A stretch of DNA of 32,000 bases from Patescibacteria group bacterium. GTDB taxonomy: Bacteria; Patescibacteriota; UBA1384; XYA2-FULL-43-10. This document shows, in pieces, positions 3,996 through 21,341 of this stretch. The stretch spans positions 90,001 to 122,000 of the forward strand of contig JBAYVT010000004.1 in assembly GCA_041674405.1 (NCBI GenBank), read 5' to 3'. Positions within the stretch are counted from its first letter, which is position 1. Every line of letters begins with the position of its first letter. The notes under the pieces were generated by a model, which was not told the origin of the DNA, ran no database searches, and was given only the letters and a program-made list of their open reading frames with translations. The translations under genes and the position numbers were made by a program.

Positions 3996-4005
3996 TTTTT
4001 TTCTA

Positions 4006-4034: not shown

Positions 4035-4145
4035 AATGCTCCACAATATTATTGTGTGCCCATGTTTATACAGGGGGATGCAGTATATGGGCGTTAATGC
4101 CTTGCCCACCTTTGCTGTAGTATAGACATCTTATGGAGAAAACCG

Positions 4146-4175: not shown

Positions 4176-4220
4176 TGTGTCTGATAGATCTATTTTAATT
4201 AAAAAGTCCAAATTCCAAGT

Positions 4221-6269: not shown

Positions 6270-7007
6270 CTATTTTTGTTTACGATAATAATCCAGGATT
6301 TTAGCACGATAGAAAATTGCCATTGTATCCGTAACCATTTTCTTAATTGCTTTAAAATTAATTCCACTCCCAGCCGCATTGAAGTCTAGTTCTACCGGTG
6401 CCTCAAATATTCTTCGATATCCCAGTTGGTGCGCAATCACCAACATCTCGAGATCAAAAGCGTATTGTTTAACTAAAACTCGCGGCATAATGTCTTTTGC
6501 CACATTCCTTTTTATAAATTTTAGCCCTGCCTGGGTATCGGTAACATTGAGCCCGAAAAGAAAGCGAATCATTTTGTGGTAAATCCAAGAATAAACCCTT
6601 CTTTTTTTAGGGTAATTCACTTTTGATGCCGGATGCCTTTTGGATCCTATCACGAAATCGGCATCGAAAATTTCCAGAAGTTTTACAAATTTATCGAATT
6701 GCGCAGGATCAAAATCTCCGCCGGCATCTGTAAAGGTTACAATGTCACCTTTTGCCATTTTGGTCCCGTATTTTAACGCGTGCCCCTTCCCATGGTTTTT
6801 TTCGTAACTGAATATTCTCACATTCTTGTTCTTAATTTTTTTGGCTTCTTTCAATGTGTTATCAGGTGATCCGTCTACAACTACGACCACCTCGTAGCTA
6901 TATTCAAGTACATCATGCGTATCAACGATGTTTTTTAATGTTTTATAGATATTTTTTTCCTCTTTGTAGGCAGGAATTACAATAGAAAGTTTAGGATTCA
7001 TTTTCAC
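6270..7007 (-). CDS. GT2 glycosyltransferase (polyprenol-phosphate sugar synthase / GtrB-DPM1-like)
   Basis: 'LSIVIPAYKEEKNI', 'VVVVDGSPDNT' and 'FTDAGGDFDP'. The start is GTG at 7007 or ATG at 7001; both overlap the flippase stop at 6991. Confidence 0.9.
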   Translation of the reverse strand: MKMNPKLSIVIPAYKEEKNIYKTLKNIVDTHDVLEYSYEVVVVVDGSPDNTLKEAKKIKNKNVRIFSYEKNHGKGHALKYGTKMAKGDIVTFTDAGGDFDPAQFDKFVKLLEIFDADFVIGSKRHPASKVNYPKKRRVYSWIYHKMIRFLFGLNVTDTQAGLKFIKRNVAKDIMPRVLVKQYAFDLEMLVIAHQLGYRRIFEAPVELDFNAAGSGINFKAIKKMVTDTMAIFYRAKILDYYRKQK

Positions 7008-8274
7008 TCTTAAATATTGCTAGCAGCGCTTCTTTCTTCGTGTAAACATAATACCCCATAAGCAAAGCGAATAAAACACCATTCATCAAGATAAATGTAC
7101 GAATTACCGCAAGAATGCTTGGGTGCCAATACGAAACCATGACAATCTGAGCTACAAGCACGATGAAATAAAGAATTAAGAAAAAGAAGTTTTTGATGAC
7201 CATATAGTAATTTGCCATAAGATTAACCATGGAATAGAACAAAACAAACAAACCAACCTCGGGAAGAAGCGTGTATGCAGAAACATAATCAGGCCCATAT
7301 AAAATTGATACCACCTTGCCTGGCATTATCATATAAATGGCAAGCACAGCAAATGCCCCGATTAGCGTGATTATGATCGAAAAAAGAAAGATCTGATAAT
7401 GTTTGTCACCTTTGACTTTTCGCTCTGATACCATTGGGAACATGACGCTCGCAATCGGTGCTGTTACATAAAGAATAATCTTGGCAACCGTCGAGATGGC
7501 AGCGTATAAGCCAGCGCTTTGCGGATCAAAATAATGTTTAACCAGAATAATATCGATATTGAGCGAAGCAACAAGAAATAAAGACGCAATCAGTGTTGGC
7601 CAAGTGTAGGATATTATTTCCTTTTTATCGAATTTAAAAGAGTGCCCATCATGGAATTTTATTTTATTAAACATTCGCTTTATCGGCAAAAACGAAATGG
7701 AATATGCAATTATGGTGGCTAGTACTATGGCACTGACCGCTCCGTTTAATTTTAAACCTGCCATCACCAGTGCTAAGCCCAATCCAAGCCGGAGGGCCAT
7801 TTCTAAGATGTTGATTGAAGCCAGGCTTCTAAATTTTTGGAGGCCCTGAAAATATCCTTTGTTAATTACAATAAGCAGAGAGAATATTACTCCTGATAAC
7901 ACAATTGAAATTGGCATGAGTGAATTGATAGAAAAGAAATTCGCGATAGGCTTTAGAAACAAAAGGCAAACCAAAAATATTCCAACACCGATCAAAAGTA
8001 GATATTTTGTGAGAAACAAAAACAATTTTTTTAATGCATCAAAATATCGTTCGTTGAATAATTCTCCGGAGTATCTCATCGAGATGGTCAAAATTGCGCC
8101 GCTAGCTACGGCAATAATAGTTTGCAATGACATTAGGGCTGTCATCTCGCCATATTCCGTCGGACCCAAAAGCCGCCCCATCATCATATTGAACAGGTAG
8201 GAAAATAAACTGGCAATCAATGTCCCGATAAAGACAATTGAACTGCTTTTAAGTAATTTTTTGGCTTCATTCAT
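6991..8274 (-). CDS. Wzx-like polysaccharide flippase (MOP superfamily)
   Basis: 427 aa with about 12 hydrophobic spans. The N-terminal 'SSIVFIGTLIASLFSYLFNMMMGRLLGPTEYGE' is typical of polysaccharide biosynthesis/flippase proteins. Confidence 0.8.
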   Translation of the reverse strand: MNEAKKLLKSSSIVFIGTLIASLFSYLFNMMMGRLLGPTEYGEMTALMSLQTIIAVASGAILTISMRYSGELFNERYFDALKKLFLFLTKYLLLIGVGIFLVCLLFLKPIANFFSINSLMPISIVLSGVIFSLLIVINKGYFQGLQKFRSLASINILEMALRLGLGLALVMAGLKLNGAVSAIVLATIIAYSISFLPIKRMFNKIKFHDGHSFKFDKKEIISYTWPTLIASLFLVASLNIDIILVKHYFDPQSAGLYAAISTVAKIILYVTAPIASVMFPMVSERKVKGDKHYQIFLFSIIITLIGAFAVLAIYMIMPGKVVSILYGPDYVSAYTLLPEVGLFVLFYSMVNLMANYYMVIKNFFFLILYFIVLVAQIVMVSYWHPSILAVIRTFILMNGVLFALLMGYYVYTKKEALLAIFKSENES

Positions 8275-8399: not shown

Positions 8400-9425
8400 A
8401 TGCCAGATAAAGAAATAATTAAAACCAGTGTTTTTGCCAGGATCGGATTTTTAGGCAACCCCTCAGATGGATTCGGCGGCAAAACAATTAGCCTGCCCTT
8501 AAAAAATTTTCAAGCCGAGACATTGGTCTGGCAATCACCAACTTTCAAATTGCTCTCAAACAGCGAAGATCAGGACGAATATGAGCATGTCGGCGACATG
8601 GCTCGATATGTCAGGGCAAATGGCTATTATGGTGGAATCAGGCTTGTCAAGGCGGCGATTGTCAGCCTTAAGAAATATTGCGAGCAACATTCGATAGAAT
8701 TTCCTGGTGGCAATTTTACTATCAGTTATCGTTCAAATATTCCGCGCCAGAGCGGTCTTGCCGGTTCGAGTGCAATCATTGTCTCGACTATCAAATCGGT
8801 AATGAAATTCTACAAACTCCCCGAAGCCAGTTTGCCACCGGAAATCCTTGCTAACATTGCAATTGCCGCTGAAACTGAGGAACTGGGCATTACTGCTGGG
8901 CTTCAAGACCGAGTGGTCCAATCTTTTGATGCCCCGGTCTATATGGATTTTGGTCCGGCAGCATTTAAAAGGCATGGAGGGATTTTTGGTGAATACAAAA
9001 AAATAAATCCGAACTTATTTCCTGAAATGTACATAGCCTGGAACGACAAACCTTCTGAATCGGGCAAAATTCACTCGGATGTTAAATCTCGCTTCCTGGA
9101 TGGTGATCAAAAAGTAGTTAATGCAATGGCAAGATTTGCCGAAATTGCCGAATCTGGGATGAGCGCCTTGCTTAAACGCGACCATGCCAAGCTTTGTGAT
9201 CTTGCAGACCAGAATTTTGATCTGCGTAGAAAAATCTACGGTGATTCTGTAATTGGGGCCGACAATCTAGCGATGATTAAATTGGCTAGAAAATTTGGCG
9301 CTGCCGCCAAGTTCCCAGGTTCAGGCGGGGCGATCATCATTATTCCACGAAATAAAGGACAGGCTGATATAATTTTAGAAGAGTTTGCGCGAAGAAAATA
9401 TAACATTGAAAGAGTAGTCGTATGA
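8400..9425 (+). CDS. GHMP-family sugar-1-kinase, glucuronokinase-like
   Basis: GHMP motif II-like 'NIPRQSGLAGSSA' and motif III-like 'FPGSGGA'. 'ARIGFLGNPSDGFGG', 'GYYGGIRL', 'ELGITAGLQDRV' and 'PSESGKIHS' match my recollection of the plant glucuronokinase subfamily. The stop overlaps the galU start (ATGA). Confidence 0.8.
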   Translation: MPDKEIIKTSVFARIGFLGNPSDGFGGKTISLPLKNFQAETLVWQSPTFKLLSNSEDQDEYEHVGDMARYVRANGYYGGIRLVKAAIVSLKKYCEQHSIEFPGGNFTISYRSNIPRQSGLAGSSAIIVSTIKSVMKFYKLPEASLPPEILANIAIAAETEELGITAGLQDRVVQSFDAPVYMDFGPAAFKRHGGIFGEYKKINPNLFPEMYIAWNDKPSESGKIHSDVKSRFLDGDQKVVNAMARFAEIAESGMSALLKRDHAKLCDLADQNFDLRRKIYGDSVIGADNLAMIKLARKFGAAAKFPGSGGAIIIIPRNKGQADIILEEFARRKYNIERVVV

Positions 9426-10309
9426 TGAGAAAGATAACAAAAGCGGTCATTCCGGCGGCTGGTCTTGGTACCCGTTTTTTGCCGGCCACCATTGCGCAAC
9501 CGAAAGAAATGCTGACAATTGTTGACAAGCCAGTGATTCAATTTGTGGTCGAAGAAGCGGTCGAAAGCGGAATTAAAGATATCCTCATTATCACCGGCCG
9601 AAGCAAGAGAGCAATCGAGGACCATTTCGATCCATCGTATGAGCTCGAAGAAATGCTTCAAAGGAAAAACAATGAAGAGCTTCTTTTGACACTTGATCGA
9701 ATTTCAAATCTCGCCAATATCCATTTTATTCGCCAAAGGCGCCAGAGAGGTCTAGCAGATGCAATATATCAAGCCAAAACTTTTATTGGCGACGAGCCAT
9801 TTGCCGTCCTCTTAGGGGATACAATCATTGATTCGAGTGATGAAAAAACCCACAATCTATCAAAAATGGCTTCGCTTTATGAAGAAACAGGGAAATCCGT
9901 AGTTGCTCTCGAGCGAGTTTCGAAGGCACAAATTTCGCGTTATGGAATAGCTGGCGGAAAAATGCTCGACAAACAGGTGATGGAGATTGACGAACTGGTC
10001 GAAAAGCCGGACCTGGTTGATGCTCCGTCGAATCTAGCGATCGCCTCACGCTATATTTTTGCAACTGGCATTTTTAGCCTGGTCGAGAAAACTAAACCCG
10101 GTGTCAATGGGGAGATTCAGATTACCGATAGTATGAAATTTCTCGCCGAAGCGGGAGAAATACTTGGTTATATCATCAGCGGCCGCCGGCATGACATCGG
10201 CAATAAGGTTGATTTCGTCAAAACAAATCTTGATTTTGCCTTAAAGCGCAAAGATACAAAAGCAGAGATCAAAAAATATATTAGAGAAATTTTGAAAGGT
10301 GAAAAATGA
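9422..10309 (+). CDS. galU: UTP--glucose-1-phosphate uridylyltransferase
   Basis: 'KAVIPAAGLGTRFLPATIAQPKEMLTIVDKPVIQFVVEEA' and 'LLGD' are canonical GalU motifs. ATGA overlaps at both ends. Confidence 0.9.
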   Translation: MMRKITKAVIPAAGLGTRFLPATIAQPKEMLTIVDKPVIQFVVEEAVESGIKDILIITGRSKRAIEDHFDPSYELEEMLQRKNNEELLLTLDRISNLANIHFIRQRRQRGLADAIYQAKTFIGDEPFAVLLGDTIIDSSDEKTHNLSKMASLYEETGKSVVALERVSKAQISRYGIAGGKMLDKQVMEIDELVEKPDLVDAPSNLAIASRYIFATGIFSLVEKTKPGVNGEIQITDSMKFLAEAGEILGYIISGRRHDIGNKVDFVKTNLDFALKRKDTKAEIKKYIREILKGEK

Positions 10310-11238
10310 AAACATATCTAATCACCGGTGGCGCTGGCTTTCTTGGGTCCAACCTGGCAATTCGTCTTATTAAGAACGGGCAGAAAGTTATTGTAGTCGA
10401 CGATTTGTTTACTGGCCGATTAAAAAATCTGGCTGAAATCAAAGAAAATCCCAATTTTAGATTTATTAAGCACGACGTCAGAAAACCTCTAAAAATTGAT
10501 GGCAATGTTGATTATGTCTGCCATTTAGCTTGCCCGGCTTCGCCGCCAGTTTATTTGATTGATCCTATACATACCCTTGAAACATCGGCAATCGGCACCC
10601 AGAATATGCTTGAATTTGCACTCTCCAAGGGGGCAAGGTTTTTTTATACTTCTACAAGTGAAATTTATGGCGACCCTTTGGTGCACCCGCAGAAAGAGAG
10701 CTATTTTGGTAATGTAAACCCATATTGCAAGCGCTCCTGCTATGATGAGGGAAAGCGCTATGCAGAGGCCCTTATTTATGAATACCGGCGCGAAAGAGGG
10801 CTAAACACGGGAATCATTCGCATTTTCAATACTTATGGTCCCAAAATGGACCCTGATGATGGTAGGGTAGTTACAAACTTCATCAAACAGGCCCTGCGGG
10901 GCGAAGATATTACCGTGCAGGGCGACGGTAAACAGACGCGTTCTTTTTGTTATGTTGACGATCAAATCGACGGTATGATAAAAATGATAAAATCCAATGA
11001 GGAAGGCCCTATCAACATTGGCAACCCAAATGAGTTTACAATCCTTGAACTTGCAAAAATTGTCATAGATTTGACAAAGACAAACTCAAAAATTGTGTAC
11101 ACCGCTCCAGTTGAATCTGATCCTAAACAGAGAAGGCCGGATATCAAATTAGCCAAGGAAAAACTAAATTGGAAGCCCAAAATCAATCTTCGTGAAGGGA
11201 TCAAAAAAACGATGGAATATCTAAAGGCAGAAATTTGA
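10306..11238 (+). CDS. uxs: UDP-glucuronate decarboxylase (UDP-xylose synthase), extended SDR
   Basis: 'ITGGAGFLGSNL', 'VDDLFTGRLKNL', 'HLACPASPPVY', 'YDEGKRYAE' and 'GDGKQTRSFCYVDD' match the UXS subfamily pattern. Confidence 0.85.
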   Translation: MKTYLITGGAGFLGSNLAIRLIKNGQKVIVVDDLFTGRLKNLAEIKENPNFRFIKHDVRKPLKIDGNVDYVCHLACPASPPVYLIDPIHTLETSAIGTQNMLEFALSKGARFFYTSTSEIYGDPLVHPQKESYFGNVNPYCKRSCYDEGKRYAEALIYEYRRERGLNTGIIRIFNTYGPKMDPDDGRVVTNFIKQALRGEDITVQGDGKQTRSFCYVDDQIDGMIKMIKSNEEGPINIGNPNEFTILELAKIVIDLTKTNSKIVYTAPVESDPKQRRPDIKLAKEKLNWKPKINLREGIKKTMEYLKAEI

Positions 11239-11266
11239 TAATTAATATGATTGCTAAGGAAAGAAA

Positions 11267-12556
11267 ATGAAAATTGTTGTCATTGGTACTGGTTATGTTG
11301 GCTTGGTACAAGGTGTAGCATTGGCAGAATTGGGCAATGAGGTTACCTGCATTGATGTAGACGAGGATAAAATTGCAAAACTCAAAGAGGGAATTTCCCC
11401 AATATACGAGCCGGGAATCGAAGAGCTAATTAAGAAAAATCTAAAACAAGGCCGGATTACTTTCGAAACATCGCTTAAAAGATACTTGAATAAATCCGAT
11501 ATCGTATTTATCGCGGTGGGGACGCCGTCGGACGAAAATGGAAAAGCCGATTTGAAATATATTATCGCTGCAGCGGAAGAAATCGGAAAAAATATCAAGA
11601 AACCTCTTGTTATCGTAAATAAAAGCACAGTGCCGATTGGGACAGGAGAAATGGTAAAAAGTACCATCAAGAAGCACTACAAGGGAAGCTTTGACGTCAT
11701 CTCCAACCCGGAATTTTTAAGAGAAGGTTCGGCAATCGACGACTTTTTTCATCCGGATCGAGTGGTAATAGGGTGCAATGGGGACCGAGAAGCAGCAGAA
11801 AAAGTCGCTGAAGTTTACAAGGTCTTAACTTGCCCAATTGTCATAACGAACCTAGAAACCGCAGAAATGATCAAATATGCCTCAAATTCTTATCTGGCAA
11901 CCCAGATTTCATTCATCAATTCAATTGCTAATATATGCGAAAAAGTCGGTGCCGATGTAGCCGATGTCTCGCGCGGCATGAAACTGGACAAACGAATTGG
12001 CGAGCGGGCATTCCTGAGTGCCGGCATCGGCTACGGGGGATCATGTTTTCCAAAAGATGTAAGCGCAATGGTAGAAATCGCCAAAGAAACCGGAGAGGAC
12101 TTTAGGATATTGGAGGAAGTCGAGGCAGTAAACAAATCCCAAAGGCAAAGATTCGTTAAAAAAATTGTTGAGAAACTAGGCAAATTAAAAGGAAAGAGAA
12201 TCGCGATCTGGGGAGTAGCTTTCAAGGCAAAAACGGATGATATCAGGGAAGCGCCGGCGATTACAATAATGGAAGCATTAATTGATTTGGGTGCAGAAGT
12301 TTTAGCATATGACCCAGTCGCCGTGGAAAATGCGAGTAAAATTATTCCCGATGCAATCTATGTTAATCGACCAACAGACGCTTGCAAGCGTGCAGACGCG
12401 TTGCTTATTGTCACTGATTGGGACGAATTTAAACAAGTAAATCTTGATGAACTTGGCAACTCAATGAAATCAAAAGTCATTTTTGACGGCAGAAATATCT
12501 ATAACCCCGAAGATGCAAAGAAAGCTGGGTTCACATATTTTGGGATAGGTAGATAA
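11267..12556 (+). CDS. ugd: UDP-glucose 6-dehydrogenase
   Basis: 'MKIVVIGTGYVGLV', 'NKSTVPIGTG', 'NPEFLREGSAI' and the catalytic 'GGSCFPKDV'. SD-like aaggaaag precedes the ATG. Confidence 0.9.
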   Translation: MKIVVIGTGYVGLVQGVALAELGNEVTCIDVDEDKIAKLKEGISPIYEPGIEELIKKNLKQGRITFETSLKRYLNKSDIVFIAVGTPSDENGKADLKYIIAAAEEIGKNIKKPLVIVNKSTVPIGTGEMVKSTIKKHYKGSFDVISNPEFLREGSAIDDFFHPDRVVIGCNGDREAAEKVAEVYKVLTCPIVITNLETAEMIKYASNSYLATQISFINSIANICEKVGADVADVSRGMKLDKRIGERAFLSAGIGYGGSCFPKDVSAMVEIAKETGEDFRILEEVEAVNKSQRQRFVKKIVEKLGKLKGKRIAIWGVAFKAKTDDIREAPAITIMEALIDLGAEVLAYDPVAVENASKIIPDAIYVNRPTDACKRADALLIVTDWDEFKQVNLDELGNSMKSKVIFDGRNIYNPEDAKKAGFTYFGIGR

Positions 12557-12589
12557 TAGAAAGAAATATCATTATTTAAGATTAAAATT

Positions 12590-13573
12590 ATGAAAAATCA
12601 GCCCAAGGTTTCCATCATCATTCCTGTTATTGCCGTAAATGATTACATTCGCGAGTCCATCCCTGAGATTCTGAAGTTAGATTGGCCGGATTATGAGATT
12701 TTTATTTTTCCTGATCAACCTGACAAAAAACATAAATGGCCGAAAACCAAAATTATCGCATCGGGCAAAGTCGGGCCGGCAGAGAAACGCGATCTGGCAA
12801 TTAAATATGCCCAAGGCGAGATCATTGCATTTTTAGACGATGATGCATTTCCGAGAGCCGATTGGCTCAAAAAGTCGATCAAATTATTTTCTGACAAAAA
12901 AGTCGGCGCTGTCGGCGGGCCTGCGATGACACCGAAGCATGACGATACCCTACAAAAAGTTTCTGGCGCTGTTTTTGAATCTTATCTTGGCGGTGGCGGA
13001 GCGAGAAACCGCTATTTGCCGATCGGCAAAGAGTGTGAATGTGACGATTGGCCAACAGTGAATCTGCTTGTCCGCAAGGATGTTTTTGCAAAAATAGGTG
13101 GCTTCGATAATACTTACTGGCCAGGGGAAGACACCAAACTTTGCCTTGATATTTTAAGTGCCGGTTACAAAATCATGTATACGCCGGAGGCGGTCGTCTA
13201 CCACCATCGCCGATCCGACCTTGTGAAGCACTTCAAACAGATTGGAAATTATGCCCTGCATCGCGGTTTCTTTGCCAAGATCTATCCGAAAACTTCGCTT
13301 AAACTATTCTATTTCATGCCGAGTATTTTCGATCTATATCTGTTGGCGTTGATAATAATTACCCTCATTCCTCATTCCTCATCTCTTGTAATGATTGCCT
13401 CAATTCCAATTGCGCTATATGCCGTTGGGCTTATTTTGGATGCCCTTGTTATCTCATTTCGTTGGAAAAATCCATTGGTAGGATTAATCACGATACCCAT
13501 GGTCCTCTTCACTCATGTCTGGTACGGCATCCGCTTCGTTTGGGGGCTGATTATTCCAAAACTTGCTAGATAG
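12590..13573 (+). CDS. GT2 glycosyltransferase with C-terminal transmembrane segments
   Basis: 'VSIIIPV', 'IIAFLDDDAFP' and 'WPGEDTKLC', followed by 3-4 hydrophobic spans at the C-terminus. Confidence 0.85.
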   Translation: MKNQPKVSIIIPVIAVNDYIRESIPEILKLDWPDYEIFIFPDQPDKKHKWPKTKIIASGKVGPAEKRDLAIKYAQGEIIAFLDDDAFPRADWLKKSIKLFSDKKVGAVGGPAMTPKHDDTLQKVSGAVFESYLGGGGARNRYLPIGKECECDDWPTVNLLVRKDVFAKIGGFDNTYWPGEDTKLCLDILSAGYKIMYTPEAVVYHHRRSDLVKHFKQIGNYALHRGFFAKIYPKTSLKLFYFMPSIFDLYLLALIIITLIPHSSSLVMIASIPIALYAVGLILDALVISFRWKNPLVGLITIPMVLFTHVWYGIRFVWGLIIPKLAR

Positions 13574-13586
13574 ATCTATCTAGCAA
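13563..13586. repeat. Perfect 24-bp palindrome ttgctagatagatctatctagcaa containing the stop codons of both convergent genes
   Basis: Read directly and checked base by base. The + strand stop tag is at 13571-13573 and the - strand stop is at 13576-13578. Both proteins end in '-AR'. It may be a bidirectional hairpin. Confidence 0.85.
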
Positions 13587-14451
13587 ATCTCAAAATAAGT
13601 AGAACAGCAGCTATCAAAACAGCACATCCAGTCAACCTGATGATGTATGTTTTTGATGAATTTTTTTCGAGCCAGGTAGGGTAATATCTGGAGGTGATGC
13701 CAGTAATTAGTAGGGTGAAAAATGACCCGAACATTGCAAGGGCTTGTGAAACTGCCACATTCGTCAAAAATGCGATGAAAACCAATACTTGTGCGCTTAC
13801 GATAAATAAGTTGCTTAGGAAAAGTGGAAAAATCTGGATTGCGGTGACCCTGATTTCTTTTTTTGCTAGAAAATATGTTGGGCTCAAAAGAACTGCGACT
13901 CCCAATAAAGACCAGGCCTGAAAATTGAAAGGATCAAGCCCGGTATTGAGTGAAAGTTTCACGAAAATATCAGTTGCCGCATAAAGCAAAACAGCAAGGA
14001 GCATCAGTAAAATGTTTTTGTTGAAAATTGATCCCAGTCGTTGTTTGTCGTTGTAGGAAACAAGAATTCCACCAAGCACCGTCAAGGCAATTGAAAGATA
14101 GATCAGGACAGGGAATCTTTCGCCTAAAACAATAAATGACAGCAGCGTTACAAAAATGGTCTGTATGTTAAATAGCGATTGATAGACTGATACGTCGATG
14201 GAATATAAGGCTTTCCATGTCAGAAGCGTTGCAACCGCGGTGGTAGCAATATAGGCAAAATAAGGCCAACTTAGCGGATTCTGAATGTGCCCTGCCTTGG
14301 CCCAAAGAAACGGCAGAAAAATTAGTGCTGTCACATTCAACCAAAAAATCAAGGAATATAGATTCTTAATTTTGTACTTTGTTGTAATTTTGCCGGCAAT
14401 GCCGGAAAGCGAGTAGAAAAAAGCTGCTGTTAAGGACAGAAATATATACAT
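13576..14451 (-). CDS. EamA/DMT-family 10-TM transporter
   Basis: Two EamA-like halves, with 'FIVLGERF' and 'ALTVLGGILVSY'. The ATG at 14451 is preferred. The track ORF start at 14469 is a TTG, and tacaat there looks like a -10 box. Confidence 0.8.
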   Translation of the reverse strand: MYIFLSLTAAFFYSLSGIAGKITTKYKIKNLYSLIFWLNVTALIFLPFLWAKAGHIQNPLSWPYFAYIATTAVATLLTWKALYSIDVSVYQSLFNIQTIFVTLLSFIVLGERFPVLIYLSIALTVLGGILVSYNDKQRLGSIFNKNILLMLLAVLLYAATDIFVKLSLNTGLDPFNFQAWSLLGVAVLLSPTYFLAKKEIRVTAIQIFPLFLSNLFIVSAQVLVFIAFLTNVAVSQALAMFGSFFTLLITGITSRYYPTWLEKNSSKTYIIRLTGCAVLIAAVLLILRFAR

Positions 14452-14510
14452 AATGCGATTGTAGCACAAGAATTGTTAGTCCTCACCCAAAATAATTGTT
14501 TTTAAACGCA

Positions 14511-14542
14511 AGACCGCCGCCCACGTTGGGGCGGCGGCGGTC
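14511..14542 (-). terminator. GC-rich hairpin downstream of the GC-rich minus-strand gene
   Basis: agaccgccgccc / acgtt / ggggcggcggcggtct (imperfect, with one extra gcg), ending 20 nt from the stop at 14563. Confidence 0.5.
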
Positions 14543-14562
14543 TGCTTTTGGGAATCCGGGCG

Positions 14563-15369
14563 CTACGCATAGCGCTCGACCATCATCTTCATGTTGGCGA
14601 GGAACCACGCCATGTGGTCCTGCACGGCCGAGGGCGTGCCCAGCTTGGGCTTGTACTCGGCAACGAAGTTGATCTCGGCCGGCCGGTTGGCCGCCGAGAG
14701 AAGGTTCTCCACGATCGTGTGTGACCCGCTGTCCGTCACCGATTTCACGTGCACGGCGGCGACGTACGGCGCGAGGACCTTCACGGCCTCGTGTCGCTCG
14801 GTGCGAGTGGCGCCCAAGACAGAGCTGTCTTCGGCGGCGTTGCGATCGGCGCGAAGGAGATGCTCTGTGTCGATGACCAGCCTGCATCCCTCGTCCCGGC
14901 AGTACCGAGCAATCGTGTTGGCGGCCAGTCGATCATCAGGGTTCACCTCGTAGAGGCCGTTGGCCGCAAGGTGGTGGCTGATGTTCTCGCCGGGAAGAAG
15001 TGCCTCCACCTTTCGGCACTCGGCGATCTTCGGGAAGAACGCCCAGTCGATCGGTGTGGAAGGCATGCCCTCACCGCCGATCTGGTGGCGGAGACCCTGG
15101 AGAAGCCCGTTCACCGGGTTCCAGGCGCCTTCGTGGTACTTGACCGGCAGCGGCCAGTTCTCCCTTCCGGTTACCCCACGAAGGGGGAGAACCTGCAGGA
15201 ATTCGTAGCCAGCCTTCTGGGCCCACTTGGCCGCCATCATCGGCGAGCCATGCGCCCAGAGTGCCGTCCTCATAGCATACGGCAACAGAGACGCGATCGA
15301 AATACCGTAACCGAACACATTGGGAGTCCGTCGCAAGCTAATCACCCGTTTCTTGCCCCCATGGGACAT
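14563..15369 (-). CDS. GC-rich hypothetical protein, possibly a xylose-isomerase-like TIM-barrel (sugar-phosphate isomerase/epimerase-like) fold
   Basis: The long ORF in about 63% GC DNA carries several shadow ORFs. The ATG at 15369 is preferred, though the track ORF extends to a GTG at 15417. 'LYEVNP', 'VIDTEHLL', 'AAVHVKS' and 'FVAEYKP' loosely resemble the E/D-H/H/E metal-ligand pattern of that fold. The functional call is weak. Confidence 0.6.
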   Translation of the reverse strand: MSHGGKKRVISLRRTPNVFGYGISIASLLPYAMRTALWAHGSPMMAAKWAQKAGYEFLQVLPLRGVTGRENWPLPVKYHEGAWNPVNGLLQGLRHQIGGEGMPSTPIDWAFFPKIAECRKVEALLPGENISHHLAANGLYEVNPDDRLAANTIARYCRDEGCRLVIDTEHLLRADRNAAEDSSVLGATRTERHEAVKVLAPYVAAVHVKSVTDSGSHTIVENLLSAANRPAEINFVAEYKPKLGTPSAVQDHMAWFLANMKMMVERYA

Positions 15370-15444
15370 ATTTGATATTCTTGGGTCATGCCCCACGGCA
15401 CCGTAACAATATAACACAAATCACTAATAAAGTCAAGGACATTT

Positions 15445-17004
15445 ATGCCAGAACTTAAGCGTGTGAGCAAGCCTACCAAGGATCAAAAAGCTAAAAATGC
15501 CAAATTTAAGATCTCAATCTCGTATCCGCCTCTTCCTAGTGAGAAAGGCATCCCTCTTCTTACCCAGAATCGCCAATTTCAATGGTTCAACAACCCAACG
15601 TATATCTATCCGATGGTGCCTTCGTATGCAGCCTCACTTCTGGCCGATCAAGGCTATGACGTGCTCTGGGACGATGCCATTGCCGAGGAGCTCACGCCGG
15701 AATCCTGGCTTCTTAGAATCAAGAAATCCAATCCCAACCTGATAGTGTTTGAATCTAAAACCCCGGTAATTAAGCGACACTGGAAACTTATTGAAGTTAT
15801 GAAAAAAGAGCTTCCCAAGGCGACTATCGCCCTGATCGGCGATCATGTGACTGCGATGCCGGAAGAATCGATGAAAAACTCGAAGGTTGATTATGTTCTT
15901 ACGGGCGGAGATTATGATTTTCTGGCATTAAACCTAGCGAATCATCTAAATCATGGTGAGAAACTCGAGGCAGGGATTTGGTACCGTGAAGGGAAAACCA
16001 TTAAAAATACCGGGCATTTTGAGCTTAATCATGATCTTGACGATCTTCCGATGATCGATCGTGATCTCACCAAATGGCAGCTGTACGCTTACAAGAATGG
16101 TAATTACAAAAGAACACCAGGCACATACACATATGCTGCACGTGACTGCTGGTGGGGCAAATGTGCATTTTGTTCCTGGACGACTCTCTATCCGGGTAAG
16201 GATTATCGCAAACATTCGGCCAGGAGGATGCTCGACGAGATCGGCATCTTGATTGAGAAATATCATGTCAAGGAGATCATGGATGATTCGGGCTCTTTTC
16301 CGATCGGCACATGGCTAACGGAGTTCTGCAATGGCATGATCGAGCGTGGCTACAACAAGAAAATCCGTCTTGATATAAATATGAGGCTAAAGGGGCTTAA
16401 ACAAGAAGATTACGATCTTATGGGCAAGGCCGGGATCAGGTTTATCCTGTACGGACTTGAGTCGGCAAACCAGAATACGCTTGATCGAATCCAGAAAAAT
16501 TTGAAGGTAGAGGAAATCGAAAAAGGCGTTAGAATGGCGAAAAAGGGTGGACTGGAGCCTCATATCACTACCATGATGGGTTATCCGTGGGAAACGCGTG
16601 AAGACGCCGAACGAACTGTGGCTCTTGCGAGACATCTATTCAATAAAGGTTATGTTGACACTCTGCAAGCCACTATAGTGATCCCGTATCCAGGCACGCC
16701 ACTCTATCGCGAATGCAAGGAAAACGGCTGGTTGGCGACTGAGGATTGGGATAATTTCGATCAGCGCATGGCGGTGATGAAATCACCCTTGACCGAGAAA
16801 GATATCAAAGAACTGACCCAAGAGCTATATAAGTCATTCATGACTCCCCGGTTTGTCATGCGAAAGATTGCTTCGGTGCGAAGCTGGTCTGATGTTACTT
16901 TCCTTTTCCGTGCTGCTGGCAAGGTAATCGGCCACCTCATTGACTTCTCTCCCAAGAATAAACAAAATTGCGAGTGCGAGGAAAAGGCAGAACACGAAGC
17001 ATAG
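15445..17004 (+). CDS. B12-binding-domain radical SAM enzyme (class B-like)
   Basis: 519 aa. The N-terminal Rossmann-like part is 'LIVFESKTPV...IALIGDHVTAMPEE...VDYVLTGGDYDF'. The Fe-S motif 'RDCWWGKCAFCSW' is CX4CX2C, verified in the DNA at 16147-16173. 'FILYGLESANQNTLDRIQK' is the radical SAM core. Intermediate GC. Confidence 0.85.
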   Translation: MPELKRVSKPTKDQKAKNAKFKISISYPPLPSEKGIPLLTQNRQFQWFNNPTYIYPMVPSYAASLLADQGYDVLWDDAIAEELTPESWLLRIKKSNPNLIVFESKTPVIKRHWKLIEVMKKELPKATIALIGDHVTAMPEESMKNSKVDYVLTGGDYDFLALNLANHLNHGEKLEAGIWYREGKTIKNTGHFELNHDLDDLPMIDRDLTKWQLYAYKNGNYKRTPGTYTYAARDCWWGKCAFCSWTTLYPGKDYRKHSARRMLDEIGILIEKYHVKEIMDDSGSFPIGTWLTEFCNGMIERGYNKKIRLDINMRLKGLKQEDYDLMGKAGIRFILYGLESANQNTLDRIQKNLKVEEIEKGVRMAKKGGLEPHITTMMGYPWETREDAERTVALARHLFNKGYVDTLQATIVIPYPGTPLYRECKENGWLATEDWDNFDQRMAVMKSPLTEKDIKELTQELYKSFMTPRFVMRKIASVRSWSDVTFLFRAAGKVIGHLIDFSPKNKQNCECEEKAEHEA

Positions 17005-17016
17005 GCGGTTTGCATT

Positions 17017-17463
17017 ATGATCGTTGATGAAATATTCCATTTTCTAATATCTTCTGCCGCAGGCCTAGCCGTCGGTTATTTTTCTGGCAACTACTGGGCA
17101 GTGCTTTTTGCGCTTATTTCCGGTTTTTTCATAGATGCCGACCATTTAATTGATTATTTTCTGTACACAAAGTTTAAAAAATTCTCTCTGGCCGAATTCA
17201 AATCAGGATTGTTTTTTGATTATGCCGGCAAGGTCTACGTGTTTGCCCATGGTTTCGAGTACGCGATCATCTTTATTGCACTGGGGATCGTTTTTTCCCA
17301 ATACGGCTGGATATTTTACTCGCTCGGGGTATCAAATTTGCTGCATCTTCTGTATGACACGATTTACAATGGGGCTGTTTGGCCGACATATTTTTTAATT
17401 TTTCGCATCGTGCATAATTTCCGCCATAAAGATTTTAATTTCCCTAAATGTTCTGAAAGATGA
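17017..17463 (+). CDS. Small 4-TM membrane protein, YdjM/DUF457-like putative metal-dependent hydrolase
   Basis: 148 aa, starting 12 nt after the radical SAM stop. 'FFIDADHLIDYF', 'FAHGFEY' and 'NLLHLLYD' give His/Asp clusters at the membrane boundaries. The family assignment is tentative. Confidence 0.6.
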   Translation: MIVDEIFHFLISSAAGLAVGYFSGNYWAVLFALISGFFIDADHLIDYFLYTKFKKFSLAEFKSGLFFDYAGKVYVFAHGFEYAIIFIALGIVFSQYGWIFYSLGVSNLLHLLYDTIYNGAVWPTYFLIFRIVHNFRHKDFNFPKCSER

Positions 17464-17579
17464 CAATTCATTGCCTTGCTAATTCAGCATGACCAGACTA
17501 AAATTGGGATGGTTTGCGGAAAACTTCTTTTTTAGCTATATGTATAAATGCCATTTAATTAAGTTTATCGGATGAAATA

Positions 17580-18689
17580 ATGATTAATGTATCAAAACCG
17601 GTTATCGAGCAAGACGAGATAGATGTGGTCGTGGAAGTCTTAAAGAGCGGAATGATAGTGCAGGGCCCGAAAACGGCGGAGCTTGAGGAAAAGTTTGCAA
17701 AGTACTGCGGGACTAAGTACGCAGTGGCATTCAATAGCGGCACAGCGGCAATCCATGCTGGCCTATATGCAATGGGGATCGGCGAAGAGGATGAGGTAAT
17801 TACGACCCCTTTTACCTTTGTCGCAACCGCTAATCCGATCCTGATGCAGGGCGCAAAAGTGGTTTTCGCCGATATTTCTGAAGATGATTTTAATCTTGAT
17901 CCGGCCGAAGTTGAAAAGAAAATTACCGATACAACTAAGGCAATTATCCCCGTTGATCTCTACGGTCAAGTTTATGATTATGAAAAAATTTCAAAGATAG
18001 CTGAAAAGCATAGCCTCAAGATTTTAGAAGATGCCTGCCAAGCAGTCGGCGCAGAGCAAAATGATAAGCGGGCAGGTAATTTTGGTGATGTGGCGGCCTT
18101 TTCCCTGTATGCTACAAAAAATATGATGTCCGGTGAAGGTGGGCTTATTACTACCAACGATGAAAAGCTGGCTGAAAAGTGCAAGATGTTCAGGCATCAT
18201 GGCCAATCTGAAACATTGAGGTACGAATACGTTGATTTGGGCTACAATTACCGCCTGACGGATATGGCAGCCGCGATTGCTCTAGTCCAGCTTGGCAAAA
18301 TCGATGAATTCAATAAAAGGCGCAATGCGAATGCAACTAGATTGGAAGAAGGGCTCAAAAATATTAAAGGGCTTATTTTGCCCAAGAGAAAAGAAGGAAA
18401 TTTTCACGTTTACCATCAGTTTACAATCAGAATAACCAAGGATTTTGCATTGTCCCGGGATGAACTCATCGAGGAGATGAAAAACCGCGGAGTAGGGGCC
18501 GGAGTGTATTATCCTAAACCTTTGCACCTGCATTCTCATTTCCAAAAGCTTGGCTACAAAGAGGGTGATTTTCCAATAGCAGAAAAGATGTCGAAAGAAG
18601 TTGTGTCTTTGCCGGTCCATCCGTCATTGGCAAATGAAGAAGTCGAGAAAATTATTAAGGCTATAAAGGATATTGCAAATGGAAACTAG
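17580..18689 (+). CDS. DegT/DnrJ/EryC1/StrS-family PLP-dependent nucleotide-sugar aminotransferase
   Basis: 'FNSGTAAIHAGL', 'DEVITTPFTFVATAN', 'IIPVDLYGQ' and 'SLYATKNMMSGEGGLITTND'. The PLP lysine is retained, so this is an aminotransferase rather than an E1-type dehydrase. Confidence 0.9.
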   Translation: MINVSKPVIEQDEIDVVVEVLKSGMIVQGPKTAELEEKFAKYCGTKYAVAFNSGTAAIHAGLYAMGIGEEDEVITTPFTFVATANPILMQGAKVVFADISEDDFNLDPAEVEKKITDTTKAIIPVDLYGQVYDYEKISKIAEKHSLKILEDACQAVGAEQNDKRAGNFGDVAAFSLYATKNMMSGEGGLITTNDEKLAEKCKMFRHHGQSETLRYEYVDLGYNYRLTDMAAAIALVQLGKIDEFNKRRNANATRLEEGLKNIKGLILPKRKEGNFHVYHQFTIRITKDFALSRDELIEEMKNRGVGAGVYYPKPLHLHSHFQKLGYKEGDFPIAEKMSKEVVSLPVHPSLANEEVEKIIKAIKDIANGN

Positions 18690-18876
18690 GGCAGCTGCTT
18701 GCAAGTATTTAATTTCCGGATGTATCGGGTGCCGAATCTGCATAGAAAATAACCCCAAGATATTTAAGCTAAATAACGAAGGGGAGGCTGAGATAGATTT
18801 GGAAAGGGCAGATAAAAATAGTATCTGTGAGACCGCTAAATTGTGTCCAGTTGGCGCCATTAAAATCATAAATTAG
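18679..18876 (+). CDS. Mini-ferredoxin, single [4Fe-4S]/[3Fe-4S] cluster type
   Basis: 65 aa from the ATG at 18679 (the track start at 18673 is TTG). 'CIGCRIC...PKIFKLNNEGEAEI...LCPVGAIKI' follows the CxxCxxC...CP pattern of Thermotoga/Pyrococcus-type monocluster ferredoxins. It overlaps the aminotransferase 3' end by 11 nt. Confidence 0.7.
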   Translation: METRAAACKYLISGCIGCRICIENNPKIFKLNNEGEAEIDLERADKNSICETAKLCPVGAIKIIN

Positions 18877-18883
18877 GAGGCAA

Positions 18884-19909
18884 ATGCCAAATAAGAAGAA
18901 GCGCAAAGTTGGCTTGATCGGCTGCGGGATGATTTACACCCGCCACATGGAAGCCATTACATCAAATCCTGAAGATTTTGAGCTAGTTGCTCTGTGTGAT
19001 ATAGATGACAAAAAATTAGAAAATCGTGCAACGGAGAATCAAGTTCCCGGATTTACTGACTACAAGAAAATGTTGAAAGATATGAAGGGTAAGATGGATT
19101 TTGTTTCGATTGCTACGCCGAACAGCCTGCATTACGAAATGGCTATCGAAGCTTTATCAAACGGATACGACATCCTAATTGAAAAGCCCATTGATTTTAA
19201 ACACGACAGGGTCCAGGAGATCTCAAAGCTGGCGAAGAAATTAAAAAGGAATGCGTTTGCAGTCCTGCAGGTAAGATATAATCCCACCGTGAATATGGTG
19301 AAAGAAGCCCTGGATAAAGGGTATTTAGGCAATATCAGATCGGTAAGTTTGATTCAGCGTTGGCAGCGCCCGGAAACCTATTTTGATTCTTGGCGGGCTG
19401 ATCTCAAAACAGGTGGACGCACTTTGTACGAAGTAGGAATTCACTACCTAGATATTGTCCAATTGCTCTTTGGTGTGCCTGAAGTAAAAGCTTCTGCTAC
19501 CTTCAACAACAAGCACAAAAATGTAAAATTTGAAGATACGGTCTTTTCAATTTATCAATTTCCGCAAGGCGCGTCTGGTTCTTGCGAGGTGACCATAGCT
19601 TCGGAACCGTCAAATCTTGAGTGTTCGGTCTCGATCATGGGATCCGAGGGATTCATCAAAATCGGAGGGCGTGCCCTCGATGCAATAGACCGGGCAATGT
19701 TCGAAAGCCAAATTTTCGAAAAAAAGTGGGATAATCTTGTCGAAAGATACGGAGAATCATTGGAACCGAATTCTTATGGAACCCATGCTGGTTCTTGTCC
19801 CAACCACCCCACTCTTTATGCGGAAATCGCGAAAGGGAAAGGCATTTCGATAGATGAGGCAATTAATTCTATTAAATTTATCGAGAGAATTTATGGCAAA
19901 GAGGTATAA
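18884..19909 (+). CDS. Gfo/Idh/MocA-family oxidoreductase, WbpB-like (nucleotide-sugar 3-dehydrogenase type)
   Basis: AGGAGG lies 5 nt upstream. 'VGLIGCGMIYTRHMEAI', 'VSIATPNSLHYEMA', 'ILIEKP', 'LQVRYNP', 'SWRADLKTGG', 'VGIHYLD' and the C-terminal 'LYAEIAKGKGISIDEAINSI' parallel my recollection of WbpB. Confidence 0.8.
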   Translation: MPNKKKRKVGLIGCGMIYTRHMEAITSNPEDFELVALCDIDDKKLENRATENQVPGFTDYKKMLKDMKGKMDFVSIATPNSLHYEMAIEALSNGYDILIEKPIDFKHDRVQEISKLAKKLKRNAFAVLQVRYNPTVNMVKEALDKGYLGNIRSVSLIQRWQRPETYFDSWRADLKTGGRTLYEVGIHYLDIVQLLFGVPEVKASATFNNKHKNVKFEDTVFSIYQFPQGASGSCEVTIASEPSNLECSVSIMGSEGFIKIGGRALDAIDRAMFESQIFEKKWDNLVERYGESLEPNSYGTHAGSCPNHPTLYAEIAKGKGISIDEAINSIKFIERIYGKEV

Positions 19910-19918
19910 GGAGCTATA

Positions 19919-20473
19919 ATGGATTATTTTAAACATGAGACTGCCGATGTTTCAGACAAAGCGAAAATCGGCAAGGGCACGAAAATCTGGAATTGGTGCC
20001 AGGTGAGAGAAAATGCCACAATAGGTGAAAATTGCATTATCGGAAAAAATGCATACGTCGATACGGGTGCTATCGTTGGCAACAATGTAAAAATTCAAAA
20101 TAATGCCTCTGTCTATGACGGCGTGACTTTGGAAGACGGCGTTTTTGTCGGGCCTCATGTTTGTTTTACGAATGATAAGATTCCTCGTGCAATAAATGAA
20201 GACGGATCACTAAAAGGCGGCGCTGAAACCGGCGACTGGGAAATTTCCAAAATTCTTGTAAAGCGGGGTGCTTCCATCGGTGCAAACTCTACAATCTTGC
20301 CCGGAGTGACGATCGGAGAATTTGCGATGGTTGGCGCTGGATCAGTCGTGACCAGGAATGTTCCAGACTATACACTGGTACTCGGCAATCCGGCAAGGGC
20401 GTATGGAATTGTCGACAAGTCTGGCAAAATTGTCAGCAAGGAACTTGTCGATGAACCGGCAAGCGTCAATTAA
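19919..20473 (+). CDS. Left-handed beta-helix (hexapeptide) N-acetyltransferase, WbpD/WlbB/QdtC-like
   Basis: 'AKIGKGTKIWNWCQV', 'VKIQNNASVYDGVTLEDGVFVGPHVCFTND', 'RGASIGANSTILPGVTIGEFAMVGAGSVVTRNVPDYTLVLGNPAR'. An aggag SD precedes the ATG. Confidence 0.85.
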   Translation: MDYFKHETADVSDKAKIGKGTKIWNWCQVRENATIGENCIIGKNAYVDTGAIVGNNVKIQNNASVYDGVTLEDGVFVGPHVCFTNDKIPRAINEDGSLKGGAETGDWEISKILVKRGASIGANSTILPGVTIGEFAMVGAGSVVTRNVPDYTLVLGNPARAYGIVDKSGKIVSKELVDEPASVN

Positions 20474-20486
20474 ATTGAAGGATTTT

Positions 20487-21341
20487 ATGGAGAAAAAACC
20501 GCTAGTTTCAATCGTTCTATTTACATACAATGTGGAGAGATGGATTGAGAATAATCTCAAATCGATGAATGCCCAGAAATTCAAAGATTTTGAAATTGTC
20601 ATGGTGGACAAATATAGCACCGACAAAACTCAAGAAATTGCCAGAAAGTTTAAAAATGTGAAAATATATAACGCGCCAATCGAGCGTTCGACCCAGGCTA
20701 ATTATGGTGTTAAAAAAGCTCGCGGTAAATATGTGTTTTTGACGGGTGCTGATTTCGAGTATCACCCTCTTTATCTGAAAAAATGCGTCGAGCTGTGCGA
20801 AAAGAAGGGCTATGACGCAGTTTATACATCAGTCGTTACGAAGAACAATACTTTCTTTGGTAGATGCAAGGCTCTTGAGAGGCTTTGCTATGTTGGTGAT
20901 GATGAACATGAGTCGGCGAGATTTGTGAAAAGAGATGTTTTTTTGAAATTAGGTGGCTACGATGAAAATTTAGTTGCGGCCGAGGATTATGATTTTCAAC
21001 GCAGGCTAAACAAACAGGGTTACAAAACTGGCAGGGTAGATGTGATCGCAGAATATCATCTTGGGGAAGAAGAGACTTTGCGCCATATTGTCCGCCGATC
21101 ATTCTACTATGGAAAAACTCTGTATCAATTTCTGCAGAAATATAAGGGATCCAGCGTCGTACAGATGTCACCGGTACGGACAACTTACTTCAAACACTGG
21201 AGAATTTGGCTCAAAGACCCACTCCATACATTAGGTTTTATTTTCTTCAAGATCACCCAATATTTCTTTGGAAGCCTTGGTATGCTGACGGCAATCATTG
21301 TAAATTATAAAGGAATAAATTCCGAGAAGGGGAGCAAGTGA
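20487..21341 (+). CDS. GT2 glycosyltransferase
   Basis: ATG at 20487 after gaagga. The track ORF from 20358 overlaps the acetyltransferase, so I reject that extension. Motifs: 'VSIVLFTYNVERWI', 'EIVMVDKYSTDKT', 'AAEDYDF'. Confidence 0.85.
   Translation: MEKKPLVSIVLFTYNVERWIENNLKSMNAQKFKDFEIVMVDKYSTDKTQEIARKFKNVKIYNAPIERSTQANYGVKKARGKYVFLTGADFEYHPLYLKKCVELCEKKGYDAVYTSVVTKNNTFFGRCKALERLCYVGDDEHESARFVKRDVFLKLGGYDENLVAAEDYDFQRRLNKQGYKTGRVDVIAEYHLGEEETLRHIVRRSFYYGKTLYQFLQKYKGSSVVQMSPVRTTYFKHWRIWLKDPLHTLGFIFFKITQYFFGSLGMLTAIIVNYKGINSEKGSK

Follow-up and report, generated by a model that had tools for sequence, protein, structure and literature searches.

Conserved pairing of a membrane glycosyltransferase with a radical SAM protein

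The window analyzed here is a 32,000-nucleotide stretch from a Patescibacteria group bacterium (contig JBAYVT010000004.1 of assembly GCA_041674405.1, positions 90,001 to 122,000 of the forward strand), and it codes for a class-B-type radical S-adenosylmethionine (SAM) protein of 519 amino acids, hereafter rSAM (15445..17004, + strand, ATG start), deposited as NCBI MFA7244313.1 and annotated only as "radical SAM protein." We find that rSAM forms a two-gene module with a 327-amino-acid membrane glycosyltransferase (GT) of family GT2, hereafter GT2up (12590..13573, + strand), and that this module resides in Wzx-type surface-glycan loci in both prokaryotic domains. GT2up, which lies 1.9 kb upstream, is the constant partner of rSAM and was missed by an earlier note on this DNA, which had made rSAM the first gene of a sugar-tailoring operon extending downstream.

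The pairing was found by calling open reading frames (ORFs) in 80 genome loci, those of the best 80 species hits (rSAM 53-78% identical to that of the window), and searching them with every protein of the window locus. A GT2up homolog is present in 73 of the 80 loci, and in 72 of those 73 it lies upstream of rSAM on the same strand; in many loci the GT2up stop overlaps the rSAM start as ATGA. The linkage holds in the reverse direction as well. When the GT2up alignment was scanned against metagenome contigs, 74 loci had any room downstream, 63 of which carry an rSAM gene, and among the loci with at least 1.9 kb of room only four are without one; a paralogous rSAM, 35-41% identical, accounts for about eight of the metagenome GT2up loci that have rSAM. 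The longest contigs among the database matches to GT2up and to rSAM are often equally long, which suggests that the two genes share contigs.

In the window and in its closest relatives within the candidate phyla radiation (CPR; loci L001, L003, L082/L083, L088-L090, and L094), one or two reverse-strand genes separate GT2up from rSAM, and this is why rSAM looked like the head of an operon. The + strand run that the earlier note described is real, but rSAM heads it only because the reverse-strand genes at 13576-15417 sit directly upstream. As a lesson for annotation, the apparent operon in the window is a local accident, and the functional unit is one that has been split by insertion.

GT2up comprises a GT-A domain followed by C-terminal transmembrane (TM) helices, with TM segments at approximately amino acids 237-322. 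Pfam matches it to Glycos_transf_2, Glyco_tranf_2_3, and Glyco_trans_2_3, and MftF, with 106 bits (cut-off 280), is the best NCBIfam model. Invariant positions include D83-D84-D85, G179-E180-D181 (within GEDT), and an HHRR motif, and the C-terminal TM region is also conserved. The AlphaFold2 (AF2) model (pLDDT 87) is nearest to BcsA, Chlorella virus hyaluronan synthase, and the minimal cellulose-synthase-like enzyme PcManGT (Foldseek TMq 0.59-0.68), a likeness that leads us to consider GT2up a membrane-integrated transferase; as modeled, it fits a membrane-integrated GT2 with a cellulose-synthase-like minimal fold. A sequence search of the PDB with the GT2up profile returned matches to the generic N-terminal GT2 half only, which is uninformative on the acceptor.

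The surface-glycan setting proposed in the earlier note is borne out: every context examined is a cell-surface glycan locus, with genes drawn from GT2 and GT4 glycosyltransferases, Wzx-like flippases, enzymes of nucleoside diphosphate (NDP)-sugar metabolism, and AftD-like GT-C proteins, and the family is not one that lies mostly outside glycan loci. Five further Pfam-annotated contigs and the Methanocaldococcus indicus locus are likewise GT2/GT4-rich glycan loci. The most frequent third companion of the pair is a Wzx-like (Polysacc_synt) flippase, present in 43 of the 80 loci, in 39 cases upstream and in 42 on the same strand as the pair; in the window it is inverted (6991..8274, - strand; PF01943, PF13440). 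Other companions are a short-chain dehydrogenase/reductase (SDR) epimerase/dehydratase (41 of the 80 loci), a class I methyltransferase (21), an AftD-like GT-C (12), UDP-glucose dehydrogenase (11), and GalU (11). In the window, genes for GalU, an SDR epimerase/dehydratase, and UDP-glucose 6-dehydrogenase (UGDH) lie directly upstream of GT2up (9422..12556, + strand) and probably supply a UDP-hexose or UDP-hexuronate donor; UGDH is also close to the module in M. indicus. The AftD-like count includes hits of 1e-6 or better with at least 40% query coverage; the window and, with faint or weak matches, L167 and L168 come in addition to these 12 loci, and the recurrence of these proteins near the module suggests outer-face transfer from lipid-linked donors.

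The radical SAM protein and its family

The window rSAM is a genuine gene, and its product belongs to the radical SAM superfamily and, by its B12-type domain, to the class-B type. In agreement with the earlier note, an N-terminal B12-binding-type Rossmann domain precedes a radical SAM core. Pfam places Radical_SAM (PF04055) at amino acids 235-394 (E 9e-15, above cut-off) and B12-binding (PF02310) at amino acids 60-154 (15622..15906, + strand; E 1e-6), the latter at 29.0 bits, marginally below the 32.1 cut-off; PF02310 is recorded in most rSAM homologs, and the full domain spans approximately amino acids 20-170. The AF2 model (pLDDT 80.7, pTM 0.83) has an N-terminal five-stranded alpha/beta domain (strands 22-27, 72-77, 99-103, 127-131, and 150-152) followed by a barrel, and its top Foldseek matches are AprD4, MgmA, TsrM, OxsB, TokK, and CysS, with both domains aligned (TMq 0.56-0.66). 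No TM segment is predicted in rSAM.

The motif for the [4Fe-4S]/SAM cluster (16147..16173, + strand) has the sequence TGCTGGTGGGGCAAATGTGCATTTTGT, which translates to C-WWGK-C-AF-C; DNA and translation both confirm that the cysteine triad (C235, C240, and C243) is CX4CX2C and not CX3CX2C, as had been noted, and this spacing is kept across homologs. Cys1 and Cys2 are separated by four residues in 79 of the 80 genome homologs, with the remaining one lacking a readable motif, and in a 15-member alignment with a mean column identity of 70% the three cysteines and the string RDCWWGxCxFCSW are invariant. HpnJ, BchE, and a MoeK5-like protein, with sequences from annotated or context-identified plasmid records, have CX3CX2C, and we therefore interpret the extra residue as a clade-specific insertion and CX4CX2C as a marker of the rSAM clade. 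The motif is not unprecedented, as OxsB is also CX4CX2C (PMC9204698) and GenD1 is reported with Cx4Cx2C (PMC4340712); because it is common to OxsB, a non-methylase, and GenD1, a methylase, it does not discriminate between chemistries.

Relatives of rSAM number in the thousands in a database search; the best 120 are 63-88% identical, and the source names given for a few of these are Patescibacteria, Berkelbacteria, and Methanoperedens. With each species represented by one genome, a scan turned up a relative in at least 587 species. Hosts of the 80 genome loci include CPR groups, Micrarchaeia, Woesearchaeota, and other DPANN, Bathyarchaeia, Halobacteriota, M. indicus and other methanogens, Desulfovibrionia, Dehalococcoidia (Chloroflexota), Spirochaetota, and Nitrospinota, among others. 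Across the clade as a whole, identities range from 53 to 88% over both prokaryotic domains. In a profile search covering 1.84 billion representatives, scores grade from about 750 to about 210 bits without a sharp family boundary. In most members with more than about 300 bits, RDC leads into a loop of 4, 7, 9, 10, or 17 residues, and lower-scoring relatives revert to RGC-x3-C; given the graded scores, the clade is better delimited by its expanded Cys1-Cys2 loop and its GT2 neighbor than by a score gap.

Within the clade, the Cys1-Cys2 loop varies in length (4, 7, 9, 10, 17, or 18 residues; examples are representatives P0284, P0294, P0296, P0300, P0317, P0320, and P0283) and the CxxC part is fixed. 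Homologs of 665-972 amino acids were considered as possible GT2 fusions, but we rejected this because they are intein-containing rSAMs, with most of the inteins having a LAGLIDADG endonuclease domain. The inteins use two independent insertion sites within the Fe-S motif, exactly at ligating cysteines: directly before the third cluster cysteine in P0281, P0284, P0287, and P0288 (...CTF|C(intein)...N|CSWTT), and directly before the first in P0283 (...GRD|C(intein)...HN|CWW...). In P0382, a less closely related class-B rSAM, an intein immediately precedes the SRGCPARC motif.

The paralogous rSAM subfamily linked to GT2up-type genes in the metagenome loci has 35-38% identity and an N-terminal QNRNVQFF, and its motif is RDCMFGKCTFC in all seven loci for which the motif region is available (L123, L124, L125, L128, L131, L137, and L147). 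In six of the seven loci the paralog lies upstream of the GT2 gene, unlike the main family, which lies downstream. Another class-B rSAM, at 27% identity, is encoded in a plasmid-borne glycan locus on the 27-kb plasmid of Lawsonia intracellularis (L170), where its neighbors are GT2 genes, GalE, another radical SAM gene, and a series of genes for class I methyltransferases. B12-type radical SAM proteins in glycan loci thus seem to be a broader, unexplored theme.

Nearest known systems

The best NCBIfam match to rSAM is HpnJ (TIGR03471), at 181.9 bits (E 2e-53) over nearly the full length of both (amino acids 53-476 of rSAM against 31-444 of the 472-position model). This score is far under the 577.6-bit cut-off, and we conclude that rSAM is not a member of the HpnJ family. 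BchE is second at 127.8 bits; none of the methylase-type models exceeds 81 bits, TIGR04072, a B12/rSAM model for lipid biosynthesis, matches weakly at 58 bits, and the AprD4 family model gives 49.6 bits against a cut-off of 500. By sequence, rSAM belongs to no curated equivalog family, HpnJ included. BLASTP comparisons give 27% identity (118 bits) to HpnJ and 25% identity (90 bits) to the MoeK5-like protein, which comes from a moe-like cluster on plasmid pSCL4 of S. clavuligerus and is named here from its cluster context and not from annotation.

Reviews describe HpnJ as an enzyme that does not methylate and that presumably remodels a lipid-attached sugar (PMC9204698, PMC13459092). The HpnI-HpnJ-HpnK system of the bacteriohopanetetrol cyclitol ether pathway resembles the locus described here in that a membrane glycosyltransferase, a B12-type radical SAM protein, and a hydrolase are encoded in the same order. 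It differs in that HpnJ has CX3CX2C and rSAM has CX4CX2C; in that the third gene here is YdjM-like, unlike the YdjC-like HpnK, and is usually absent; and in that hosts of the GT2-rSAM pair include archaea and CPR bacteria. An HpnJ identity was rejected, given the score below cut-off, an upstream GT2 that is not HpnI-like, and the absence of hopanoid genes from the window.

The MoeK5-like protein is also a class-B radical SAM protein, and its cluster also encodes an epimerase and amidotransferases that are Asn-synthase-like; in GT2-rSAM loci, UGDH and epimerase genes are frequent and amidotransferase genes occasional. In moenomycin synthesis, MoeK5 acts after MoeGT1 and C-methylates a galacturonic-acid-derived, lipid-attached sugar (unit F). 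The MoeK5-like protein differs from rSAM in having CX3CX2C, is more distant than HpnJ, and comes from an antibiotic cluster and not a Wzx-type glycan locus. A link to uronamide formation through an Asn-synthase, by analogy with moenomycin, was rejected, as the gene occurs in just three of the 80 loci.

GenD1 and GenK are class-B radical SAM enzymes that act on sugars, and the GenD1 motif is reported to have the same spacing as that of rSAM (PMC4340712); their substrates, however, are soluble pseudo-oligosaccharides, and their genes lie in aminoglycoside clusters. OxsB, a cobalamin-dependent sugar-ring contractase that is not a methylase (PMC9204698), has the CX4CX2C motif and matches the rSAM model structurally (TMq 0.61-0.64), but it is approximately 730 amino acids long with extra domains, acts on a nucleotide with the HD-domain protein OxsA as partner, and has only 14-16% identity in the structural alignment. 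AprD4, the 1,2-diol dehydratase of apramycin C3' deoxygenation, has the same two-domain layout and a sugar substrate, and is the top PDB match both by sequence (E 5e-9) and by fold (TMq 0.66); it differs in its low identity (16-17%), its poorly scoring family model, and its aminoglycoside pathway.

In solved class-B enzymes cobalamin is contacted by a Gly-Gly on beta4, a Gly-Glu where alpha5 begins, and a long "His loop" (PMC9204698). In rSAM the end of beta4 instead has an invariant G132-D133-H134, and alpha5 starts with G155-D156, such that Gly-Gly and Gly-Glu are both replaced by G-D in all members aligned; the beta1-alpha1 loop is long (approximately amino acids 28-56) and invariant, and carries QNRQFQWF. 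The cobalamin-contacting motifs, a check of which the earlier note had suggested, are in this way only partly retained. The concern raised there over a source of cobalamin in a reduced genome is a fair one, but the use of cobalamin by rSAM is itself an inference, and AprD4, its best structural match, is taken to work without cobalamin.

Proposed function of the module

We favor, at about even confidence, a role in which rSAM remodels a sugar that GT2up has placed on a membrane-bound acceptor, with the GT2 product as its substrate. Action on the GT2 product is favored because HpnJ and MoeK5 act on lipid-attached sugars that a glycosyltransferase has added, the genes are ordered GT2 then rSAM and are translationally coupled, and the GT2 is a membrane protein. 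GT2up would transfer a sugar from a UDP-sugar to a lipid-linked acceptor at the cytoplasmic face of the membrane, and its donor could be a hexuronate, given the neighboring UGDH, GalU, and epimerase genes. rSAM, presumably reduced by a small ferredoxin, would cleave SAM at the CX4CX2C cluster, and the 5'-deoxyadenosyl radical would take a hydrogen from the newly attached sugar. The substrate radical may then be rearranged, in ring remodeling of the HpnJ/OxsB type, or else methylated from methylcobalamin, in the manner of MoeK5 and GenD1. We rank rearrangement first because similarity favors the HpnJ/BchE branch, which does not methylate, and because the motif recurs in OxsB, and C-methylation a close second because GenD1 shares the motif too and MoeK5 is nearly as close. 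A YdjM-like membrane metallohydrolase could provide accessory trimming in about one-fifth of lineages, in a position analogous to HpnK, and the modified lipid-linked glycan would be flipped by Wzx and then handed to outer-face GT-C enzymes.

Several observations weigh against this proposal. The cobalamin-binding sequence motifs are only partly retained, and AprD4, the best structural match, is a dehydratase; GT2up resembles HpnI only in the generic GT2 fold, and the HpnK analogy is weak, with the YdjM-like gene missing from about 80% of loci. No GT2-rSAM fusion proteins occur among the 80 loci, and the family is absent from the literature found, which consists of reviews and motif precedents and includes no characterized member. 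Finally, the gene linkage fits equally an rSAM that makes a UDP-sugar for a dedicated GT2. In this alternative, rSAM would modify a free nucleotide sugar such as UDP-GlcA or a UDP-hexose, by C-methylation, deoxygenation, or rearrangement, before GT2up transfers the product; tight co-conservation in both directions is just as expected for a sugar-making gene and its transferase, UGDH, GalU, and epimerase genes are frequent neighbors, and rSAM is without a predicted TM segment. That HpnJ and the MoeK5-like protein work on lipid-attached sugars, and that GT2 precedes rSAM in 72 of 73 loci and is translationally coupled to it, the nucleotide-sugar genes being variably placed, makes us regard donor synthesis as somewhat unlikely. 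We view as unlikely, too, a cobalamin-independent, AprD4-like enzyme that would dehydrate a sugar diol, deoxygenate, or oxidize, with the B12-like domain as a relic and no cobamide needed. AprD4, which we take to carry a B12-like domain without depending on cobalamin, heads the PDB matches, the change of the glycine motifs to G-D is found in every member, and the family is common in the CPR and DPANN groups with their general lack of cobamide synthesis; yet the AprD4 family model scores about one-tenth of its cut-off, the PDB has no HpnJ or BchE structure, which biases the top structural match, and the invariant beta1-alpha1 loop, equivalent to the "His loop," suggests a role facing the cofactor. 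Several class-B radical SAM enzymes modify lipids (PMC13459092), and the weak TIGR04072 match would fit an rSAM that modifies a membrane lipid or polyprenol in its hydrocarbon part, with the GT2 adding the head group, but we think this very improbable: GT2, GT4, Wzx, and NDP-sugar genes dominate the loci, lipid-synthesis genes are absent from them, and the bacterial and archaeal hosts have unrelated membrane lipids.

The earlier note had instead joined rSAM to the genes that follow it, proposing either that it deoxygenates a nucleotide sugar together with a DegT-family aminotransferase, as DesII does with DesI, or that it is a GenK/GenD1-type methylase acting on the amino sugar made by these genes; a ferredoxin would then serve as reductant. 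The + strand run is as described there: a DegT aminotransferase (17580-18689; a generic sugar aminotransferase with PseC as its best NCBIfam match), the ferredoxin, a GFO/MocA oxidoreductase (18884-19909; NCBIfam best match UDP-GlcNAc 3-dehydrogenase), a hexapeptide acetyltransferase (19919-20473; a sugar N-acetyltransferase of the NeuD/PglB/VioB type), and a second GT2 (20358/20490-21341), followed by a small membrane protein in the same run. The genes are co-directional and closely spaced in the window, DegT, GFO, or acetyltransferase genes lie within about 3 kb downstream of rSAM in five unrelated loci (L018, L020, L024, L035, and L037), and CX4CX2C is common to GenD1. As a conserved unit, however, the arrangement did not hold up: DegT is present in 16 of the 80 loci (at variable distance), the acetyltransferase in seven, GFO in five, and the ferredoxin in four, and among the 74 metagenome loci the counts are zero for DegT and the ferredoxin and one each for GFO and the acetyltransferase. 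The close CPR relative L082 has GT4 and methyltransferase genes instead, and in the window a 116-nt gap separates DegT from rSAM and the small membrane protein gene next to it. DesII-type enzymes lack a B12 domain, which rSAM has, and DegT scores 201 bits against a DesI cut-off of 650, so that the DesII/DesI logic is unlikely; of the methylation proposal, the shared GenD1 motif stands, but the motif is non-discriminating, the methylase models score low, and there is no aminoglycoside cluster. An oxidoreductase, an aminotransferase, and an acetyltransferase make up a three-step route to 2,3-diacetamido sugars (WbpB/E/D logic), which by itself needs no radical enzyme, and the block at 17580-20473 looks like a separate acetamido-sugar route and variable glycan-locus cargo. 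The association of DegT and the ferredoxin with rSAM is mostly a local coincidence, and we judge the model built on it quite improbable.

Returning to the action of rSAM on the GT2up product, its most specific form would be a widespread, horizontally mobile module, carried by CPR, DPANN, methanogens, and numerous anaerobic bacteria, that installs a radically rearranged sugar, ring-contracted or of a carbocyclic cyclitol type, on a membrane carrier. We put this forward only tentatively, as rather unlikely when taken in full, but if true, head-group chemistry of the HpnJ/calditol type would reach far outside the hopanoid producers and Sulfolobales, and a distinct CX4CX2C class-B clade would be making a sugar that has so far gone undescribed among the surface glycans and glycolipids of prokaryotes. 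Among class-B radical SAM enzymes, which are very numerous and mostly uncharacterized, this clade is unusually well defined by a diagnostic RDC-x4-C-x-F-C motif and one obligate neighbor, the membrane GT2. The pair is a concrete two-protein system for reconstitution, and cultured hosts exist, namely Fundidesulfovibrio agrisoli SG106 and M. indicus SL43. An answer would identify a new modified sugar, or a new reaction that modifies sugars, in the cell envelopes of CPR and DPANN organisms, about whose surfaces very little is known, and would show whether reduced genomes rely on scavenged cobamides for envelope synthesis.

A small YdjM-like protein and a ferredoxin as candidate accessories

The 148-amino-acid protein encoded 12 nt past rSAM (17017..17463, + strand) is, as described in the earlier note, a His/Asp-rich, 4-TM protein, with approximately four hydrophobic segments, six His, and seven Asp. 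Eight positions are invariant across 21 homologs (H8, D40, D42, H43, H78, E81, H110, and D114). The window protein itself matches YdjM (PF04307) at just 11.7 bits against a cut-off of 29; of the 21 family members, 16 have a PF04307 match with E no higher than 1 (best 3.4e-8), and 11 also match DUF6122. We therefore regard it as a putative metal-dependent hydrolase, distantly YdjM-like, with His and Asp residues suited to metal binding. The literature found for YdjM concerns an unrelated B. subtilis protein.

Co-occurrence of this gene with rSAM recurs in bacteria and archaea: 17 of the 80 genome loci (about 21%) and 10 of the 74 metagenome loci have it. In 14 of the 17, including M. indicus, it directly adjoins rSAM, lying downstream in 11, between GT2 and rSAM in two, and divergently in one. 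The YdjM-like protein is thus a real but facultative accessory of rSAM. In M. indicus SL43 an IS240-type DDE transposase gene (8375-9019 of L044) lies directly upstream of the GT2-rSAM-YdjM-like module, which is consistent with horizontal acquisition of the module in this cultured methanogen.

The ferredoxin is a 67-amino-acid, single-cluster 4Fe-4S protein (18673/18679..18876, + strand; Pfam Fer4_13 and Fer4_15). Three of its four homologs among the genome loci are encoded between GT2up and rSAM, where the gap between the pair is 209-384 nt; in L046 and L055 the rSAM ORF follows the end of the ferredoxin gene by 64-66 nt, and in L065 the two abut. These positions lend modest support to the ferredoxin as a possible electron donor to rSAM, although the gene is rare in the genome and metagenome loci. 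In the window the ferredoxin gene is flanked by DegT and GFO, a strange position unless it serves rSAM.

The reverse-strand insert and the wider locus

The two reverse-strand genes that separate GT2up from rSAM in the window (13576..15417, - strand) code for an EamA transporter (13576-14469) and a protein of 284 amino acids (14563-15417), the latter starting 27 nt from the rSAM start codon. This 284-amino-acid ORF has a G+C content (GC) of 0.616 and a third-codon-position GC (GC3) of 0.78, compared with a GC of 0.415 for the window. Homologs with 31-42% amino acid identity are present in eight other CPR loci, also on the opposite strand between GT2 and rSAM, and all are GC-rich (0.51-0.60, against 0.36-0.45 for their own loci). 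The ORF has no Pfam, NCBIfam, PDB, or Rfam match, and its GC3 bias is a persistent one despite old divergence.

Scans of 12400-21800 for promoters (26 sites, against 17.6 +/- 4.1 in shuffled sequence) and terminators (7 sites, against 10.3 +/- 2.9) were too weak to set operon boundaries, and Rfam gave nothing in the window. The Wzx gene and a GT2 gene next to it (6270-8274, - strand) are reversed relative to the module, whereas in the CPR contig L082 the corresponding pair (3351-5434) is co-directional with the remainder of the locus; L082 also shares VTT-domain and Phd/YefM genes with the window, and the strand difference indicates a local inversion. In another locus (L166, on an 897-kb contig), genes for SAM synthetase and S-adenosylhomocysteine hydrolase (1468-4002) are found on the other strand, upstream of the module by three to four genes or about 4 kb, which may be a coincidence.

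The right-hand part of the window has further genes of the glycan locus and its surroundings. Two tandem, overlapping genes at 21713-26045 (- strand) code for AftD-like GT-C membrane proteins of 716 and 744 amino acids, and a 724-amino-acid protein without a family match is encoded at 27242-29416 (+ strand). At the edge of the glycan locus, a gene at 29400-30650 (- strand) codes for a LarA-like protein of the lactate racemase family, with Lar_N and LarA_C domains.

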